Positions 401 to 35,640 of a DNA stretch of 64,000 bases are shown here, piece after piece. The stretch lies in IMG/VR virus record IMGVR_UViG_3300005805_000046, positions 32,001-96,000 of that record. One strand, given 5' to 3'. This stretch comes from a virus. Each line of letters starts with the position of its first letter. Within the stretch, counting starts at the first letter, position 1. The translations under genes were made by a program, and so were the position numbers. The notes beneath the pieces are model-generated. The model was not told the origin of the DNA, ran no database searches, and worked only from the letters and a program-made list of their open reading frames with translations.

Positions 401-2677
401 TTATATAATTTGAATAGAGTTTACGGTATTGTTTACATTAAAATTAAAAGCTGTATCTATTGTTCCATTGATATTTAATCTAACTAATCCTAATTTTCTG
501 TAGCCAAACGACAAGTCTTTTCCTATTCCTGCGCATATTATTTTGCCGTTTTTTTGTAATGCCACATCACATATAGTATTAATAATCATGTTGGAAAAAC
601 TACTATCTAAAGACCCGTCGGTATTTAACCGTATAATTCTACCAATGTCAATGTTGTTGTATTTATTATAATCATTATATGCACAGATTATTTTATCATC
701 ATTTTGAATGATAATTTTTGAACAGGGCATGTTCGTTCCTGACGGCCCCACAAATGTAGAAGTAAAACCAGTACCAACAATAAAAGACGTGTCGATTGCT
801 CCGTTATCATGAAGGCGTACTATTCCTTTGGAAGAAATATTGTTGTAATTACTAAAAGAGCCGCCACAAAGTATTTTACCGTCTTTTTGTAAAGTTAATG
901 CTGTAACTCTGCCATCAAAGCCTGAACCTATACTAAAACTAGTATCAATAGTACCGTTGGTATTTAGTTTTACTATTCTATTAGATGTCAATCCGTTATA
1001 ATTGGTAAAAGTTCCACCAGCTATGATTTTACCATCATTGAGTATTACGATACAGTCTACTCGACCATTAAACCCGGAACCAGTATTAAAGCTATTATCT
1101 GTAGATCCATCGGCATTAAGACGAACAATATTAAATGCTCCCGCACATAATATTTTGTTATCTGGTTGAACCAATAATGTTGACATATTGCCAATTTTTG
1201 AACTCAAAACAGAATCAGTTATGAAATTATTATCTATAGTACCGTCAATATTTATACGAACTATATCTCCGGTTATTTGAGTATTATTATATCTATTAAA
1301 GGTACCAGCACATACGAATTTTCCATCATGTTGCTTAACTATACAACAAACCCCTGGGGGTTTAAACTCTAGTCCTCCTATGGATGTTGCGTTAACTGTG
1401 TTATTAAAACCAGAGCCTATATTAAAATTATTATTAATTAATCCTTGATTGTAAATATTTATTATTCTATTAATTTGTGTTTTATTGTAATATAAAAAAC
1501 TACCACAACAAATAATTGAGGAACCAGTATCTATTATGTTTAATATCGATCCTCCAAATAGCTGTCCTCGAAAACTTAGGTCTATAGACCCGTCTGTGTT
1601 TAGGCGACATATGCTGTTCGTTTCATTGTTTTTATACGAAGTAAAAACTCCTCCTAATAATATTTTTCCATTGTTTTGTATTAATACTTTATCTACAGTA
1701 TTATTAAAACCTGTTAAACTCGAAGAGCCAACATCGAAGGTATTATCTATAGATCCATTACTATTTAAACGAATAATATTGTTAATAATAACTTCTTGGT
1801 ATTGTGTCATTCTACCAACACAAATAATTTTACCATCGCTTTGAATAGCAGCATCATTTACTGATGGAGACCCAAACGAGCCCACAAAACCATTACCAAC
1901 AACAAAGCTATTGTCTATAGACCCATCATTATTTAATCTTATAATTCCACTACTAGAAATATTATTATAGGACGTAAAGTTTCCTACGCATAATATTTTT
2001 TGATCATTTTGAATGATAATTTTTGAGGGTGACGGAGAATTACCAAGCGTTGTAGTACCAGAAAATCCACTACCACTCATAAAACTGTTGTCTATGGTTC
2101 CGTTAGGATGAATTCTTACTATGCGTCCGCATGATACGTTATTATACATAGTAAATGATCCGACACAAATCATTTTGCCATCACTCTGTATAGCCACATC
2201 ACTTACTGCGTCATTAAAACCGCTGCCTACAACAAAACTACTATCTAAAGAACCATCAGCATTTAGTCTTGCCATTCTAGTAATAGATATTGAATTATAT
2301 GAGGTAAAACCGCCCACACAAAGAATTTTTCCGTCGCTTTGTAGTTTTATGCTTGATATAGGGGAGTTAAAACCTTCTCCTGATGCAAAGCTGTTGTCTA
2401 TGGTGCCGTCTGTATTTAATCTAAATATGCTACTCATAAGCCATTCATGAAATGGCGACACATTGGATTCACCACAAAGAATTTTTCCGTCACTTTGATA
2501 GACCATAGAACGTACAGGCACATCAAATTTTGCCACAAAACTATTATTTATATTGCCACTATCATCAAATGATATTATCCTGGGGCTATCGCCTAGCTCT
2601 GCGATAAAGTTTCCTGCTACTATTAGTTCTTCAGTTTCAACAGCTGATAACTGAGTATTATTGCCGAATGCACACAT
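401..2677 (-). CDS. delta-60 repeat beta-propeller protein, probably virion-associated
   Basis: About 12 repeats of the type Q(S/N)DGKI..G.FT.YN......I.RLN.DG.ID.SF..GSGF. Confidence 0.8.
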   Translation of the reverse strand: MCAFGNNTQLSAVETEELIVAGNFIAELGDSPRIISFDDSGNINNSFVAKFDVPVRSMVYQSDGKILCGESNVSPFHEWLMSSIFRLNTDGTIDNSFASGEGFNSPISSIKLQSDGKILCVGGFTSYNSISITRMARLNADGSLDSSFVVGSGFNDAVSDVAIQSDGKMICVGSFTMYNNVSCGRIVRIHPNGTIDNSFMSGSGFSGTTTLGNSPSPSKIIIQNDQKILCVGNFTSYNNISSSGIIRLNNDGSIDNSFVVGNGFVGSFGSPSVNDAAIQSDGKIICVGRMTQYQEVIINNIIRLNSNGSIDNTFDVGSSSLTGFNNTVDKVLIQNNGKILLGGVFTSYKNNETNSICRLNTDGSIDLSFRGQLFGGSILNIIDTGSSIICCGSFLYYNKTQINRIINIYNQGLINNNFNIGSGFNNTVNATSIGGLEFKPPGVCCIVKQHDGKFVCAGTFNRYNNTQITGDIVRINIDGTIDNNFITDSVLSSKIGNMSTLLVQPDNKILCAGAFNIVRLNADGSTDNSFNTGSGFNGRVDCIVILNDGKIIAGGTFTNYNGLTSNRIVKLNTNGTIDTSFSIGSGFDGRVTALTLQKDGKILCGGSFSNYNNISSKGIVRLHDNGAIDTSFIVGTGFTSTFVGPSGTNMPCSKIIIQNDDKIICAYNDYNKYNNIDIGRIIRLNTDGSLDSSFSNMIINTICDVALQKNGKIICAGIGKDLSFGYRKLGLVRLNINGTIDTAFNFNVNNTVNSIQII

Positions 2678-2680
2678 ATT

Positions 2681-3616
2681 TTAATTCTTTGTTGGTTTTT
2701 TAATTTTTGGCTGAACAACACTTGCTGGAATAACCCCGTCTCCTACGCTATTAGCACTTACTGGAACCGGATCGCTATCGCTTTGAGTTGCATACTTCCA
2801 ATAACCCGGACCGGATCCGTTTTTATCGGGTGTGTAGTATGCGGCCTTATACCATTCATTTTCTGTTGGTATGTGATATTTTGCGTTAGCGTTTCTAGCC
2901 ACAGCATTTCCCGACACAGCTCCGTTTAAGGAATATGCTCCATCTTCTGTGGTGCTGTTATTTTGAGATCCAACCGGCCTATCATTGTGCAGCCAGTTGC
3001 AGTATCGTGCGCAATCAAACCAGCTAACAAAAACTACAGGCTTGTTGCTCATATTGGGTTTAGTGCTATAGGAATACGTTCCGCTACTGCCGCTGCGATT
3101 TATTCCACCGGGATTATCGCTACTCATACCAGTAGAGTATAAGTTATATGTGTCTGTAGCAGCAACAGAGTTAAGAAATTCAACATACTCGCTGTTAGTA
3201 ACAACATATTTAGCTATCCTGTAAACATAATTTACATTTCCATAGCCAGTAGTATGATTAAGGTTGTTAACGTCTCCTATCTCTACAAAGTTAGAAAAAT
3301 TTAAAGGGTTAAGGGACGATGCGAGACGAAAACCGATGTAGTTGCCCTCGCCCGACGGGTCGAACGTGGTCCTGATGGAGGACGACAAGTTGAACGCGTT
3401 GTCGTAACAGCTGCCGCCGCGGAGCCCACGAGACGGGCCGACTAATACATTCAAATCATTCCATTGAAATACATTTCCGCTCATATCATAAGTACCATAA
3501 AAGCTTGGTCCGCCGTTTGTGCCTACGGTCGTGACGTTGCCACTCATGTTATTCCATTTGGCACCACTGTTAAAGTTCGCGCTATTAATAATCTTATTAT
3601 TTGTTAAAAGACTCAT
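2681..3616 (-). CDS. FGE-sulfatase/C-type-lectin-fold protein, circularly permuted, probable DGR target
   Basis: Motifs YGTYDMSGNVFQW, LRGGS and IGFRLA occur before VTNSEYVEFLN, PVVFVSWFDCARYCNWL and IPTENEWYKAA. Confidence 0.8.
   Translation of the reverse strand: MSLLTNNKIINSANFNSGAKWNNMSGNVTTVGTNGGPSFYGTYDMSGNVFQWNDLNVLVGPSRGLRGGSCYDNAFNLSSSIRTTFDPSGEGNYIGFRLASSLNPLNFSNFVEIGDVNNLNHTTGYGNVNYVYRIAKYVVTNSEYVEFLNSVAATDTYNLYSTGMSSDNPGGINRSGSSGTYSYSTKPNMSNKPVVFVSWFDCARYCNWLHNDRPVGSQNNSTTEDGAYSLNGAVSGNAVARNANAKYHIPTENEWYKAAYYTPDKNGSGPGYWKYATQSDSDPVPVSANSVGDGVIPASVVQPKIKKPTKN
3314..3442 (-). other. putative DGR variable region (VR)
   Basis: 129-bp patch at about 64% GC (82/129, hand count) in an AT-rich gene; encodes VGPSRGLRGGS...GFRLASS with many NNC codons; only 1 of 43 codons ends in A. 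Confidence 0.7.
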
Positions 3617-3618
3617 AA

Positions 3619-6600
3619 TTAATTGGTTTTATTTCCTATATAGTGACCTTCAATTATGCTAGATCCTATTGCTCGTAATAGGAAAAGATGCGTACCAACC
3701 GATAATGCCCCGGCTGGTGGCTGATTAAACCAATCGTTCACAATAGTCCATGTTATGCTAGTAGCAGATGTTACGGTAATTCTTAAGATCACATCAGCGC
3801 TTAATGTGCCAATATCTGGCCAGTTAATTCCCTTGGTAAAGGTTGTTGCTGTTCCGTTTAGCGTTAATGTTTGAATCAATCGGTCTGTGCCAAAACTTAT
3901 AGCATTACTTCCAGAAACTGAACCCAAAGCTAATATAGAAGGATTCTCGGTTGTTGATACTACTATATTATCATTAATATTGTCATAAGTCAAAACTATG
4001 CCGTTTCCAGCAACAAGATCCGTAGAAACAATGTTGGAAACTGCTGTGTTAAAGTCGGTTATGGAACCTGAAGTATGGTTGTGGTTGGTTGGTGCTTTAC
4101 CATCTAACGCTGTTTGTAAGCCATCTACTGTGCTGATAGCTTGAGTGCCTGTGTGGTTGCTTCGCTGAACTGCAAAAGCCTGAGCGTTGTTTGCTTTTGT
4201 TGCGGCATCACTAGCAGCAGCACTTTGAACAGCACTATCCGCAGATGCTTGTGCGGTACTAACAGGTTTGTTAACGTCGCTTGTGTTGTCAACATTACCT
4301 AAACCTACCATGCTCTTGGTAATGCCACTAACAGTTCCCGTGAATGTCGGGCTATTGATGTTGGCCTTAAGATCGACATTCGCCTTCAGGCTCTTGAACG
4401 CCTGCTGAACAGTCGCGGCGCCGGCAATACCACTATCAATCTGGTTGTGATAGATGTTTCTGCTATCGTGCAACACTTCGAGTGCGTGCTGCACGTTGTA
4501 AGAAATTGCCGAGGTGCCAGCCACGGTCAAAGTAACATTAGCGTTGGTGGCCGTAGCGTTCGCGCTGATCGTTAACGTTGCACCGCTGATGGCCGTGATC
4601 GTGGTATTGGCCGGAATGCCAGTACCGGTGATCACATAGCCGACTTGGAAGTTGGCCGCAAGCACGCTGCCAACCGATGTGACCGTTACTTGGTTGCTTC
4701 CGCTTGTGATGCTGCCAGTGAAACCAAGACTGAAAGACAGCGGGAAACTCAACTGCTCGCACTGCCATGTGATCGAGCCGTCCACGACCGTACCGCCGAT
4801 TGTGGTTGGCCATGTGGGTGCTGTTGCGCCGCTACGGCCAATGCCAGTAGCGGTCACATTGCGATACTGATAGCCGTTACCGGGAAGCAGGATGCGATTG
4901 CGCACATACTGCGCATTCGCGGCCCAGCCAATCGCCGGATATCTAAATGTGACGCCCGATGAGCGCGCGGTAATAAACGCACTGCCGAGACCGGGCTGGG
5001 TATTCGTATTCCAACCGGGATGCGTATGGATAGCACCTTCGTTTAATGACAACGAAACTGGGTTGGGCTGAATATAACCGGCCGTATTGGAGTTACCAAA
5101 GAACGCTCCCTTGATCCACTTGGCGTTGGCCGCAGTGACCGCAACCGAAACATCGGGTCCGGTGTTCTCGTAGGACACGGTGTTGGCAGTCGGGAAGTCA
5201 ACGACCTTGGCGCCAAAATTAGGCGTATTGAACGAAGTGTTTTCAGTCACGCCATTGATGAGCACATACTGCTCACGCCAGTAGCCATCGGGAAGAATGT
5301 TGCGGCTTTGACCGTGATTCAACGACAGCGTAACCGTGGCAACATTGTTCGTTCTGGTGAACGATGTGGCCTTGATTTCGTTGTAGGCTGGCATGAACGT
5401 GGCGTCCATGTTGAAAACGCCGTGGCGGCCAGTTGAAAAAATGGACGCCCACGAGTGGAAAAATACTTGTTCGAGCGTATTGAACGCCACGTTGCCGATA
5501 ATGTTTCCGAACCCGTTGCCGCCAGTACTGTTTTGGCAATCCACGGCGTACAACGTGATGCCGTGAGTACCGGTGGCTTTAAGCGTGTCGAAAGTAGCAT
5601 TCTGGTACGCATACAGGTGCATCGTCGAGCCACCACTCGACGTGCTTGTTGCTTCGATCACGCCACGCACACCGCAGTTCGTCAGATGCACCTGATTAAA
5701 GCCTAAGGTGTCTACGGTGTGAACGGTCAAGTTGCCCTGAATGCCCACAAAACTGTGCTGGCCGTTATTGAACATTGGCCGATGATTCGAGCCGATCATG
5801 GCGAAAACAAAGTTGTTCAGTTCGCCGGAATCGAATGACAGGCTGGCCGAAGCATTCGTTGCTGTGGCAGTGTTGTTTAGCGTAATGGTGCTGCCATTGA
5901 TGGCCGTGATGACAGTATTGGTGGGCATGCCCGTGCCGGTCATAATCGTGCCAACCTTGAGTCGGCTGTAATTAACGTGCGATGTGCTAACAGTGATAGT
6001 GTTACTGCCGGTCGTAGTCGCGGAGGTAACGGTGTTCGTATTGCCGCCGGTCGTCGCGGGAACCACGTTCGCCGGACGACTCCACAAATAGTTGCCCTTA
6101 AGCGTGGCGCCACCGGTCACATCGAACACAACACCCGGGCGGAACGGAATATTTAATGTGCCGCCAGATTCTTCGTCATAAAAGCCCGGAGCAATACGGA
6201 AGCAATAGAAGCGCTTGGTCGTATCGTTCATGTCAGCGAGCGACGACGCGCTAGAAACAGACGCCAAAGCCGCACGCATGGTCTTAAATGGCTTGTATTG
6301 GCTGCCGTCCGCGGTATAGGTGTCGGTGCGACCATTGTCTACATAGATATTTTTAGTGCCGGGTTCGGAAAGTGAACTAAAGAGTTCCTCCGAGGTGTGA
6401 GTGTGGTTTGTTGCTGCTTTGCTATCTAACACTGTTTGCAAACCGTCTACTGTACCGATAGCTTGGGTTCCAGTATGATTGTTTCGCTGAACTGCAAAAG
6501 CCTGGGCGTTGTTTGCTTTTGTTGCGGCATCACTAGCAGCAGCACTTTGAACAGCACTATCCGCAGCGGCCTGTGCGGTACTAACAGGTTTGTTAACGTC

Positions 6601-7257
6601 GCTTGTGTTGTCAACATTGCTTAAGCCAACATCGTCTTTTGTTAGAGTCACCACGCCGGTCTTACCAGCTACGCTCTGTACTGGTGCTGCGGCACTAGCT
6701 CGTGCATCTGTGTAATATTTGTTAACGCTTCCTTCTGGAACAGCATCCGTGCTACCGGGAGAGGCGCTAATCTCGACATAAATGCTGCCGCTCCAGCGAT
6801 ATGTCTTATTGTTTTCGAGAGTAACATAAATTTTGCCACTTTCGCCGCTCGATGGTAGCGTGGAAAAATTCGCCACTTCTATTACGTCGTCTACGTAGCT
6901 GGGCAATTGAGATGCTGGCACTCTACCATTTACAAGATTAGCATAATCACCAGCCAACTGAAGACCAACCGCACTTATAGTAAGCTCGTTAGAATTATCG
7001 TTGTAAGAAATAGATATATTAGATCCTGCCTTAATTAAACCAGCAACTCTATCATCAATATTTTCTAAAACAACACTATCATTAATGTCTATACCAGAGT
7101 ACTGTAAATTATTCCAAGATGTTACTCCATCTCCAAATTTTAATTTTCTGGTATCAGTTTCTAGTCCTGGTTCACCAACTTTTAAAATAGGATTGTTAGT
7201 AGACCAGTTATTTGAGGTATCTCTACGTAATCTGATATGGACGTATGATTGTGTCAT
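3619..7257 (-). CDS. tail fibre / receptor-binding protein with Mtd_N-like N-terminus
   Basis: N-terminal IRLRRDT..W...NPIL..GE.G.ETDT.KLK.GDG motif; VGL.NVDNTSD..KPVS fibre repeats; Thr/Ser/Gly-rich beta regions. Confidence 0.8.
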   Translation of the reverse strand: MTQSYVHIRLRRDTSNNWSTNNPILKVGEPGLETDTRKLKFGDGVTSWNNLQYSGIDINDSVVLENIDDRVAGLIKAGSNISISYNDNSNELTISAVGLQLAGDYANLVNGRVPASQLPSYVDDVIEVANFSTLPSSGESGKIYVTLENNKTYRWSGSIYVEISASPGSTDAVPEGSVNKYYTDARASAAAPVQSVAGKTGVVTLTKDDVGLSNVDNTSDVNKPVSTAQAAADSAVQSAAASDAATKANNAQAFAVQRNNHTGTQAIGTVDGLQTVLDSKAATNHTHTSEELFSSLSEPGTKNIYVDNGRTDTYTADGSQYKPFKTMRAALASVSSASSLADMNDTTKRFYCFRIAPGFYDEESGGTLNIPFRPGVVFDVTGGATLKGNYLWSRPANVVPATTGGNTNTVTSATTTGSNTITVSTSHVNYSRLKVGTIMTGTGMPTNTVITAINGSTITLNNTATATNASASLSFDSGELNNFVFAMIGSNHRPMFNNGQHSFVGIQGNLTVHTVDTLGFNQVHLTNCGVRGVIEATSTSSGGSTMHLYAYQNATFDTLKATGTHGITLYAVDCQNSTGGNGFGNIIGNVAFNTLEQVFFHSWASIFSTGRHGVFNMDATFMPAYNEIKATSFTRTNNVATVTLSLNHGQSRNILPDGYWREQYVLINGVTENTSFNTPNFGAKVVDFPTANTVSYENTGPDVSVAVTAANAKWIKGAFFGNSNTAGYIQPNPVSLSLNEGAIHTHPGWNTNTQPGLGSAFITARSSGVTFRYPAIGWAANAQYVRNRILLPGNGYQYRNVTATGIGRSGATAPTWPTTIGGTVVDGSITWQCEQLSFPLSFSLGFTGSITSGSNQVTVTSVGSVLAANFQVGYVITGTGIPANTTITAISGATLTISANATATNANVTLTVAGTSAISYNVQHALEVLHDSRNIYHNQIDSGIAGAATVQQAFKSLKANVDLKANINSPTFTGTVSGITKSMVGLGNVDNTSDVNKPVSTAQASADSAVQSAAASDAATKANNAQAFAVQRSNHTGTQAISTVDGLQTALDGKAPTNHNHTSGSITDFNTAVSNIVSTDLVAGNGIVLTYDNINDNIVVSTTENPSILALGSVSGSNAISFGTDRLIQTLTLNGTATTFTKGINWPDIGTLSADVILRITVTSATSITWTIVNDWFNQPPAGALSVGTHLFLLRAIGSSIIEGHYIGNKTN
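4081..4305. repeat. direct repeat copy 1 within tail fibre gene
   Basis: Core 4161-4296 is nearly identical to 6483-6618. Confidence 0.9.
6403..6628. repeat. direct repeat copy 2 within tail fibre gene
   Basis: Core 6483-6618 is nearly identical to 4161-4296; offset 2322 bp, in frame. Confidence 0.9.
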
Positions 7258-10293: not shown

Positions 10294-10747
10294 TATTGAT
10301 CATCCTTTGTTGTTTTTTATGATTTTGGATAGCTTTTTTAACTAAAAGTTTACCAGCAGAGTCAAAGAACGGAAGGCCTCTTTTATTAGCTTCTTCTCTT
10401 AACCAGCCAACGATCTCGTCGAGGTGGGCCTCGCACCAGCCGGGCTCCTTGGCCTCCTCCTCGTCCATCGTCCGCGCGCGGGCGTTGCACGAGCAGGTGG
10501 GCGTGGCCGTGATGCCGACGCGCTTTAGGAGTTTCTTCAACTCGGTGCCGGGGCCGTGCGTCGGGGCTGCTGGTTTCGGCTTCGGCGGAACGAATCCCGG
10601 CTTCGGCTCACGCGGGTACGCAGGGTGCGTCTCGTCTACGGTGATCCTGTCGCCGTTCTCGCTGACGATGCAGGGCCGCACTTCGTCTAGCGTGTAGCCG
10701 CGCTGGCGGCAGCGGGCGGCAAGGTGTGCGCGGTGGCAGGTAATCAT
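10286..10747 (-). CDS. hypothetical Cys-containing phage protein (MITCHRAH...)
   Basis: ATGA overlap with the upstream stop codon; GC-rich 5' three quarters and AT-rich 3' end. Confidence 0.75.
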   Translation of the reverse strand: MITCHRAHLAARCRQRGYTLDEVRPCIVSENGDRITVDETHPAYPREPKPGFVPPKPKPAAPTHGPGTELKKLLKRVGITATPTCSCNARARTMDEEEAKEPGWCEAHLDEIVGWLREEANKRGLPFFDSAGKLLVKKAIQNHKKQQRMINNE

Positions 10748-11307
10748 GGGAGTTCGTTTGGAATGCAGGGCGGGATGTCTGGAGCGCCCGAAAAACCCTG
10801 CCAGTAAAACGGCGGGTCTTGTCCGGGGAATACGTCGCCAAAGACCCAAAGCCACTCAGGGCCATAATCTCCTTGCTGCACTCCGTCGCAGCAGGCACTG
10901 ACGCCAAAATTCACGCTGCCCCACAAATCACAGGTGCCATCGGGTCCGACGCACGCCGTGCAGGACGGCGCTGTGGGGGCTGTTGCCGAGCCGGTAGCGT
11001 TGGTATAGCCGTTGGCGTTCATCCATTCCGCGATGGCGTCCATCCACGCCTGCGCGATTTCCGCCTGACCCTCTGGGTCGTTGTTAAATCCCTCGCCGCT
11101 GCACGCTTCACCGCCGTAGACTAGTATGGTGTCTCCCCCGTAAGAGACGATTTGCGGGCACGGCACGCACGGCTCGCATGGTTCTGGTTCGAGAGAGCAT
11201 TCATCTTTCGGTAAAGACGGCAAAAAGACATTGCTATTATTGATGTCTTCTATAATTTGACTGATACTATTGTTATTGGTTGGTGGTCCGTAAAATGGTC
11301 TGCTCAT
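10744..11307 (-). CDS. Cys-rich protein with shared N-terminal module and GC-rich C-terminus
   Basis: MSRPFYGPPTNN...EPEPCEPC N-terminus is shared with 8851-10293. Confidence 0.75.
   Translation of the reverse strand: MSRPFYGPPTNNNSISQIIEDINNSNVFLPSLPKDECSLEPEPCEPCVPCPQIVSYGGDTILVYGGEACSGEGFNNDPEGQAEIAQAWMDAIAEWMNANGYTNATGSATAPTAPSCTACVGPDGTCDLWGSVNFGVSACCDGVQQGDYGPEWLWVFGDVFPGQDPPFYWQGFSGAPDIPPCIPNELP
11174..11269. repeat. 96-bp exact direct repeat, copy 2
   Basis: Identical to 10160-10255. Confidence 0.95.
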
Positions 11308-31849: not shown

Positions 31850-32176
31850 CTAATCATTATCTAGATCTTCGTCTTCAAGAGATTCTCTCCAATCTTCATT
31901 GTCTGGAATCCAGCCCTCGTTGGATTCGTAATCTTCTTCATGTTCATCTAGTTCTCCTATCTCAACACTTTCTTCAATAAAAAGAGTAAGTGTCATCATC
32001 ATTTCTACTACTGTGTCTAGTTTAGCAATGATCGTGTTGATCTGTTTCTTGATATCCTCGACATCTTTATTTAGTAACACTATATTTTTTAGTGTATTGT
32101 CTTCTAATTTATATATCTCTTGATTATTTTTGTTTACATTTTTTAGGATATCATTAATTTCTTTTGACACACCCAT
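31850..32176 (-). CDS. hypothetical coiled-coil acidic protein
   Basis: Co-oriented ORF with GGAG RBS. Confidence 0.65.
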   Translation of the reverse strand: MGVSKEINDILKNVNKNNQEIYKLEDNTLKNIVLLNKDVEDIKKQINTIIAKLDTVVEMMMTLTLFIEESVEIGELDEHEEDYESNEGWIPDNEDWRESLEDEDLDND

Positions 32177-35191: not shown

Positions 35192-35473
35192 TCAACCGTT
35201 GGCATGAGCCTTGAGACGAGCCACGATCTGAGCCATCTGCTCAACATTGTCAATCGTCTTGACAGGCTTCGCTCTCTCCATAGTGGGCAACTCAATACCC
35301 TTGGCCTTGAGAGCCTCCTTGGTGCGAGCAAAACGAGCCATTGTACTAGCGACCTTTTGGCCGGTCTTACTAGCAATCTCAGCATAAGTCTTACTAGAAA
35401 AAACAGCCTCAAGAAACTGCTCGTCCGAACAACGAACACGCTTCTGCTTCTCAATCGTACTAATTTCAGCCAT
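35192..35473 (-). CDS. small HTH DNA-binding protein
   Basis: TYAEIASKTGQKVAST helix-turn-helix pattern; GGAGG RBS; own promoter at 35553-35581. Confidence 0.6.
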   Translation of the reverse strand: MAEISTIEKQKRVRCSDEQFLEAVFSSKTYAEIASKTGQKVASTMARFARTKEALKAKGIELPTMERAKPVKTIDNVEQMAQIVARLKAHANG

Positions 35474-35640
35474 AATCAACCTCCAAATCTTAATCCAAAT
35501 TCACTCAGCAAGATTCGATCACGCGACCGATTAACTCCTGCTTTGTCCTTTCATTGTACAACAGTGTATCGTCACTGTCAATCCTCGTCCTTGAAAAATT
35601 TTTGCACTCCAACCAGTTTTTCAGAAAAGTAGATTCTGGA

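Follow-up and report, generated by a model that had tools for sequence, protein, structure and literature searches.

Genes and features at the locus

The window considered here is a stretch of 64,000 nucleotides, positions 32,001 to 96,000 of the IMG/VR virus record IMGVR_UViG_3300005805_000046. The source record, 153,585 bp long and rated 100% complete, is that of a lake phage with a genome GC content of 38.6%. Three adjacent genes of the window form a tight fibre module, and the middle one carries the features discussed below (Table 1). The stop of the tail-fibre gene and the start of the 311-aa gene are separated by 2 nt, and the beta-propeller gene, third in the module, begins 3 nt past the stop of the 311-aa gene. 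Baseplate-like genes are found farther upstream. The fibre protein matches PHROG families of minor-tail and tail-fibre proteins and also contains PTR repeats (PF12789). The Mtd_N-like start that a first reading of the sequence had recognized in it corresponds to a Pfam match (PF18454, E 6.6e-13) over residues 8-46. The 311-aa protein probably forms the receptor-binding tip of the fibre module.

Table 1. Features of the fibre module, with their positions in the window
Feature	Position	Strand	Basis
FGE-sulfatase / C-type-lectin-fold gene, 311 aa	2681..3616	(-)	ORF; PF03781; BLASTP; AlphaFold2
Tail-fibre gene, 1212 aa, directly upstream	3619..7257	(-)	PF18454 Mtd_N, PF12789 PTR repeats, PHROG
Delta-60 / DUF5122 beta-propeller repeat protein, 758 aa, directly downstream	401..2677	(-)	PF17164 E 2e-118; NCBIfam TIGR02608
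Variable region (VR), 124 nt, equivalent of the template repeat (TR); ~residues 59-100, ...GPSRGLRGGS to GFRLAS	3318..3441	(-)	TR alignment
N-terminal segment of the lectin domain, profile 154-254 (C-terminal third of a normal FGE); contains the VR	3320..3556	(-)	six-frame Pfam, G000 35320-35556
C-terminal segment of the lectin domain, profile 37-129 (N-terminal half of a normal FGE)	2819..3223	(-)	Pfam; BLASTP
Permutation junction, ~residues 100-109, SSLNPLNFSN	3290..3319	(-)	gap between the two BLASTP segments

Several other features of the module and its surroundings deserve mention. The fibre protein holds two near-identical copies of ~80 aa, running from DVGLSNVDNTSDVNKPVSTAQA to NHTHT and lying ~2.3 kb apart, at ~4125-4300 and 6436-6624 of the window (residues ~200-285 and ~985-1065), where they overlap the PTR-repeat matches. 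The largest GC-rich islands of the genome are the body of the fibre gene (4301-6800; 53% GC, 2.5 kb) and a 1-kb segment of unannotated genes (10301-11300; 58% GC), both of which may be further imported segments. In a related phage of 144 kb (L002/L003), RuvB-like and actin-like (Volactin/MreB) proteins and a glycosyltransferase block stand beside the fibre module, near the homologue of the 311-aa gene.

A circularly permuted lectin domain

The FGE/C-type-lectin domain of the 311-aa protein is circularly permuted. The sequence-only reading had proposed this from the order of the motifs, and profile searches, protein alignments and structure prediction now bear it out. The Pfam FGE-sulfatase profile (PF03781, 255 positions) matches the protein in two pieces that are not collinear, their order being swapped. 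In BLASTP against a non-permuted DGR target of planctomycetes (L224:6969-7985), phage residues 109-294 correspond to host residues 31-210 with 53% identity, and phage residues 11-102 to host residues 217-309 with 57% identity. At the junction the former C-terminus (GFRLAS) is thus connected to the former N-terminus (FVEIGD). When the protein is compared with human pFGE (1y4j), residues 15-100 align to chain residues 174-266 and residues 192-215 to chain residues 116-139.

The AlphaFold2 model, computed from an alignment of 90 sequences, has a mean pLDDT of 92.7 and a pTM of 0.90, and forms a single compact domain that includes the junction; it was used in place of a model from 23 sequences, which reached a pLDDT of 55. 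At the junction, LNPLN is conserved among the permuted homologues, and pLDDT there is ~97. Foldseek gave partial, weak matches (E of at least 0.037) over ~100 residues to PorK, the DGR variable protein TvpA (2y3c) and pFGE (1y4j). These matches are only partial because the aligner is sequential and the fold is permuted. The permuted layout is common, and among 6420 homologues the closest ~100 cover >90% of the query at ~50-65% identity. As a result of the permutation, the VR is placed in the first third of the gene.

The GC-rich patch

Positions 3314-3442 of the window contain 82 G+C among 129 nucleotides (63.6%), against 39.9% in the rest of the gene. GC3 is 0.88 in the patch and 0.35 elsewhere in the gene, and the 30 nt next to each edge have a GC of only 0.23-0.33. 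These values match the abrupt GC jump and return that had been described for codons 59-101. The variable positions of the patch are NNC codons and the scaffold positions are A-free codons, a pattern that the sequence-only reading had described in the phage gene and that recurs across its homologues. The VR comprises codons ~59-100 of 311, and so is not at the 3' end of the gene. The match to PF03781, the high-confidence model and the partial FGE-fold matches place it in the ligand-binding part of the C-type-lectin/FGE fold. DGR variable proteins of the FGE fold are binding proteins and are not known to act as enzymes.

In the 96 nt downstream of the phage VR the sequence folds no better than its shuffles (z = 0.37), that is, this segment has no hairpin or cruciform. 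For comparison, an inverted repeat of 12-14 bp follows the host VRs. In the phage genes the VR is immediately followed by CCCTTAACCCTTTAA, which encodes LNPLN. A repeated CCCTTTATCCCTTTATCCCTTTGG-like motif occurs after the stop of the planctomycete target gene on contigs L224, L184, L188 and L124, inverted on the last, and its likeness to CCCTTAACCCTTTAA may be due to chance. Another conserved motif, GNVTTVGTNGGP, at ~3500-3540, is GC-elevated in all phage homologues and unrelated to the TR. It was considered as a second host-derived patch and ruled out, given its elevated GC in all phage homologues and a best host sequence only 77% identical.

The phage genome has no DGR machinery

The initial observation that no TR or RT lies near the gene extends to the entire 153,585-bp genome. 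The DGR-type RT that belongs to a VR usually lies in the same genome, at a distance of ~10-50 kb or less. RVT_1 is absent from the six frames of the 153.6-kb genome, which gives no match to the RT of the host cassette either, and the Avd family PF22296 is absent from the whole phage genome. A whole-genome blastn of the patch recovered the self match alone. An adenine-tolerant sliding scan of both strands of the whole genome yielded A-rich noise and no TR. The same is seen in related viruses: no TR occurs within 10 kb at 75 related IMG/VR loci, and 46 related viral records, of which 9 are at least 90% complete, are devoid of RT. Searches of IMG/VR with a guessed exact TR pattern and two scaffold patterns returned already known VRs only, and blastn of the gene against 50,697 GenBank phages gave no match.

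The template in bacterial cassettes

Protein alignments of the homologues are conserved throughout save for the block RGGxWxxxAxxLSSSxRxxxxPSxxxxxxGFR. The scaffold codons are identical at synonymous sites (TTG TCG TCC TCC; GGT TTT CGT), though the proteins are only ~60% identical. From this identity and the NNC pattern, a template was expected that has AAC wherever the VRs have NNC, its adenines falling on codon positions 1-2 of the variable residues. It was searched for with a pattern made of the A-free scaffold only (TTGTCGTCCTCC, a gap of 39-51, GGTTTTCGT), which matched 5 viral contigs, all of them carrying VRs, >120 metagenome contigs and 41 genome contigs. The matched genome contigs belong mostly to bins of freshwater Planctomycetota (Pirellulales, Planctomycetaceae and Gemmatales), with a few Verrucomicrobiota or actinobacterial bins.

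Among the pattern matches, 11 are TR copies rich in AAC, each on a contig of 62-67% GC. Two of the TR contigs are in genome bins, both of Planctomycetota, and several others are short and unbinned. On L224, from a Planctomycetaceae bin, the order of the cassette is an FGE target with a C-terminal VR and a PEP-CTERM anchor, Avd, RT and TR, next to a neighbour gene of bacterial type (carbohydrate-binding). Its Avd was recognized by NCBIfam NF033474 (99.8 bits against a cut-off of 80), PF22296 being also present in the planctomycete cassette, and its RT by RVT_1 (1.6e-21). A distant, A-specific template next to a reverse transcriptase, as had been anticipated, does exist, and it lies outside the phage. 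The suggestion that the high GC pointed to a host template agrees with the position of the TR beside RT and Avd on contigs of this composition, including the two binned as Planctomycetota.

In cognate TR/VR pairs of the hosts, 13/32, 19/32 and 21/31 adenines are changed, against 0/95, 3/92 and 0/93 of the other bases, respectively. To judge from these pairs, the planctomycete cassettes are apparently ordinary cellular DGRs and active. The TR/VR sequence was found in 4 of 401 sampled Planctomycetota genomes, a count that says little on its distribution since 2 candidates per genome were scored. On three GC-rich bacterial contigs, L124 (- strand 220), L142 (+121) and L229 (+4615), the 3' part of the VR alone, from TTGTCGTCCTCC to GGTTTTCGT, is joined to unrelated 5' sequence; these pieces may stem from partial or ectopic insertion of VRs in the hosts.

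The phage patch compared with the template

The phage VR aligns without gaps to the 124-nt TR of L166 and L124, with 12-13 differences at adenine sites (~12/30). Only 2 internal non-adenine differences from these TRs are present, T6C and G35T, and two terminal bases also differ. In the BLAST local alignment of phage VR and TR, 11/29 A-sites and 2/92 non-A sites are changed (Fisher p = 1.5e-6). The patch spans base 2 to base 122 of the TR, and its edges coincide with the edges of TR/VR homology in the bacterial cassettes. It is as faithful to the TR as the VRs of the hosts themselves. G35T falls in codon 70 (3407-3409), where TGT replaces TGG and the nearly invariant Trp of RGGxW becomes Cys; because the base changed within the VR is not a TR adenine, the substitution probably postdates the last rewriting. 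The DGR-type variable region that had been suspected inside the gene now has a TR with A-specific mismatches, and on this alignment we regard the patch as a genuine DGR variable region.

Variation among related phage genes

The composition of the patch is found in many relatives. Of 26 distinct homologues, 14, which lie on AT-rich viral contigs, have a VR whose GC3 is higher than in the rest of the gene by >0.15, and 15, including one from a GC-rich contig, reach a VR GC3 of at least 0.6. Within the TR extent, 13 related phage genes average 0.62 GC, compared with 0.39 and 0.33 in the adjacent 30 nt. Between phages, these 13 genes are identical at 0.84 of the non-A sites of the TR, at 0.33 of the A-sites, and at 0.70-0.73 of the 150-nt flanks. 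The non-A sites are thus better conserved than the flanks and the A-sites are randomised, which implies repeated and independent rewriting from the template after the genes had diverged. One old acquisition with later drift would not produce these values. The localised variation expected among related phages is accordingly present, and it is limited to codons that are AAC, or otherwise A-bearing, in the TR. In L006, a relative with a record of 230,097 bp, 15/32 A-sites and 9/95 non-A sites are changed with respect to the TR.

Rewriting appears to be rare, since VRs are stable in most clusters of at least 90% identity, which have variable columns elsewhere and none in the VR, and since the region of the window's gene is identical over 2.9 kb, VR included, in a second assembly. 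One pair, P0046 and P0161, whose proteins share at least 90% identity overall, has 11 differing VR positions, and these lie without exception in the 3' two-thirds, while the 5' third is shared. From its layout, this difference would fit a 3'-anchored conversion tract of the kind made by DGR homing. Many relatives have 'cold' VRs with low GC3 in which K, E and Q are present; these look like decayed patches.

Paralogues of the permuted gene, 2-3 in number, occur in the relatives L009/L060 (one record), L020, L007 and L026/L032, and the L007 genome has one 'hot' VR copy (GC3 0.88) and one 'cold' copy (GC3 0.38). The permuted gene is also present on the GC-rich viral contigs L049 (GC 0.67) and L020 (GC 0.51), so phage relatives nearer to planctomycete composition exist. 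Relatives of this type could be intermediates for exchange. The ends of one provirus-flagged relative show no GC-rich host flank.

How the patch reached the phage

The explanation to which we give most weight, at roughly even chances of being correct, is retrohoming in trans of host cDNA into the phage VR. The phage gene encodes a circularly permuted relative of a PEP-CTERM surface protein that freshwater Planctomycetota diversify by a DGR of their own, and the patch is a copy of this bacterial type of template with its adenines randomised. Once the phage genome is inside a DGR-expressing cell, adenine-mutagenised cDNA made from the TR RNA of the cell would replace the phage VR. The match required for homing would be provided by the A-free scaffold at the two ends, 5' (~29 nt) and 3' (~17 nt). 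The rewritten VR would give the progeny a new binding surface. Between rewritings the patch would decay to the AT-rich composition of the phage, leading to the 'cold' VRs of relatives. Rewriting by cDNA homing in trans, and the identity of the template-bearing planctomycetes as hosts, are both what we infer from these data. Homing in trans is supported by the extent of the patch, which equals that of the TR and is flanked by AT-rich sequence, both for the gene of the window and for 9 of the 13 phage genes. The laboratory complementation of BPP-1 in trans (see below) and the lack of a near-identical host donor among the VRs sampled also favour it. The missing hairpin downstream of the phage VR and the rarity of VR changes count against it. 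Along the VR, the decay of the scaffold has no clear 5'-to-3' polarity.

A serious but less probable alternative is that the phage gene recombines with a host target gene. With crossovers in the invariant scaffold ends of the VR, it would import VRs already diversified in the host chromosome, and no cDNA would enter the phage DNA. Such capture is favoured at least in two of the 13 phage genes, those of L039 and L007. The L039 gene is ~89% identical to the host target gene over ~56 nt past the 5' edge of the TR, and L007 behaves likewise; in L071 and L187 the sequence immediately upstream of the edge is GC-rich and host-like. These tracts speak against homing in trans, as cDNA of the TR cannot supply a host-like tract past the TR edge, and recombination with host target genes therefore occurs in the family. 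The 53-57% identity of phage and host proteins over their whole length makes homeologous pairing possible. The absence of a downstream hairpin at the phage target, the rare change of VRs within phage populations, and the spectrum of bases at A-sites, which does not differ between phage and host VRs, as it should not if the phage VRs came from the host, are also in line with capture. Against capture stands the same coincidence of patch and TR edges, with AT-rich flanks. Moreover, homology to the host gene on the 3' side ends after ~17-20 nt, where the permutation junction follows, so that every event needs a crossover within this segment, which is short for ordinary recombination. Pairing would also have to take place across a segment only ~80-85% identical. 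Finally, none of the 48 sampled host VRs resembles any phage VR at the A-sites: identity at these sites peaks at 0.52-0.58, the background level, and no near-identical donor is found in this thin sampling.

An improbable explanation is that the lineage once had a DGR of its own, or uses that of a co-infecting phage or satellite, the VR being a relic or being serviced by an unsampled element. This is the usual reading of orphan VR-like cassettes in the literature (PMC5758913). The virus records are 'linear', metagenome assemblies can miss regions, and several of the TR-bearing contigs are short and unbinned, all of which leaves room for such an element. Yet the 46 related viral records, with the 9 nearly complete ones among them, lack an RT, all 11 of the TR copies are on contigs of 62-67% GC, and the whole L224 cassette is located beside a PEP-CTERM cellular target. 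The scaffold is as intact as in the VRs of the hosts, with 2 internal non-A changes, within an AT-rich genome, and the VR is therefore not an old relic. The last explanation, an ordinary hypervariable loop whose patch arose without a template from amino-acid content, codon bias or convergent selection, may draw on the richness of the region in Gly, Arg, Ser and Pro and on the elevated GC of the nearby GNVTTVGTNGGP motif, which is not TR-related, but is refuted by the identity of scaffold codons at synonymous sites in ~60%-identical proteins, by the exact coincidence with a 124-nt TR adjoining RT and Avd, and by the A-specific mismatches (p ~1.5e-6).

Whether by homing in trans or by capture, the phage binding loop is made by a bacterial DGR. 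From the template match it follows that phage DNA has shared a cell with a planctomycete-type DGR or with its target gene. Caution on the host is called for, since the phage (38.6%) and the template-bearing contigs (~65%) lie ~26 GC points apart, an uncommon distance for phage and host, since the assignment rests on the genome-bin labels of mostly short contigs, and since a few pattern matches fall in Verrucomicrobiota or actinobacterial bins.

Comparison with known systems

The system resembles the DGR of Bordetella phage BPP-1, in which a phage tail-fibre receptor-binding protein of C-type-lectin fold varies an RGG...GFR-type surface at TR adenines. Both have an Mtd_N domain in the fibre module and variable NNC codons derived from AAC. 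In BPP-1, avd, TR and brt lie next to mtd, whereas here the phage is without machinery and the TR is in bacterial genomes of very different GC. The VR of BPP-1 is at the 3' end and is followed by the IMH (homing-initiation site) and a hairpin; here the VR is in the first third of the gene and no hairpin is present. Also unlike BPP-1, the lectin domain has a gene of its own here, and it is circularly permuted.

Cellular DGRs with remote targets, such as the TvpA family of Treponema denticola and lineage-4 DGRs, offer another parallel, as one TR/RT serves distant VRs and the targets are of the FGE-sulfatase CLec type. TvpA (2y3c) is among the best structural matches of the phage protein. The remote targets of cellular DGRs lie in the DGR's own genome (PMC5758913), whereas here the target is viral and the template cellular. 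Wu et al. (2018) argued that phages should lack remote DGR targets, not being inherited together (PMC5758913), and in the largest metagenome survey of DGRs remote targets were undetectable (PMC8144416).

Diversification across replicons has been obtained in the laboratory. Guo et al. (2011) complemented BPP-1 lacking avd-TR with a donor plasmid, and Avd, TR and RT thus work in trans (PMC3240598). Their experiment shows that RT, Avd and TR coming from a second replicon of the cell can rewrite a phage VR. The BPP-1 complementation was engineered, and its homing efficiency needs IMH and hairpin (PMC3240598); by contrast, the phage gene has no such hairpin. In the published full text, neither a natural phage VR served by a host DGR nor a permuted FGE/CLec DGR target was found. 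What is new here is a DGR VR whose template and enzymes are in the genome of another organism, and its location in a circularly permuted lectin domain.

Implications for phages and their hosts

It is about evenly balanced whether a group of large, AT-rich and RT-less freshwater phages keep a tail-fibre lectin loop as a landing pad on which the DGR of an infected cell can act. If they do, a viral receptor-binding protein would be diversified by a hypermutation machine encoded in another genome, that of the host, and the template match would identify this host as freshwater Planctomycetota, a group with few known phages. The permuted lectin also indicates that a DGR-tolerant fold survives circular permutation. 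DGR-finding software that expects the VR close to TR and RT would miss genes of this kind.

DGRs have been described as self-contained cassettes, with remote targets in the same genome, and a phage VR with a bacterial template departs from that description. Viruses may borrow a host mutator for their host range, or they may trade diversified binding loops with their hosts. Both possibilities bear on the evolution of phage receptor-binding proteins and on the sequence-based linking of uncultured phages to their hosts.
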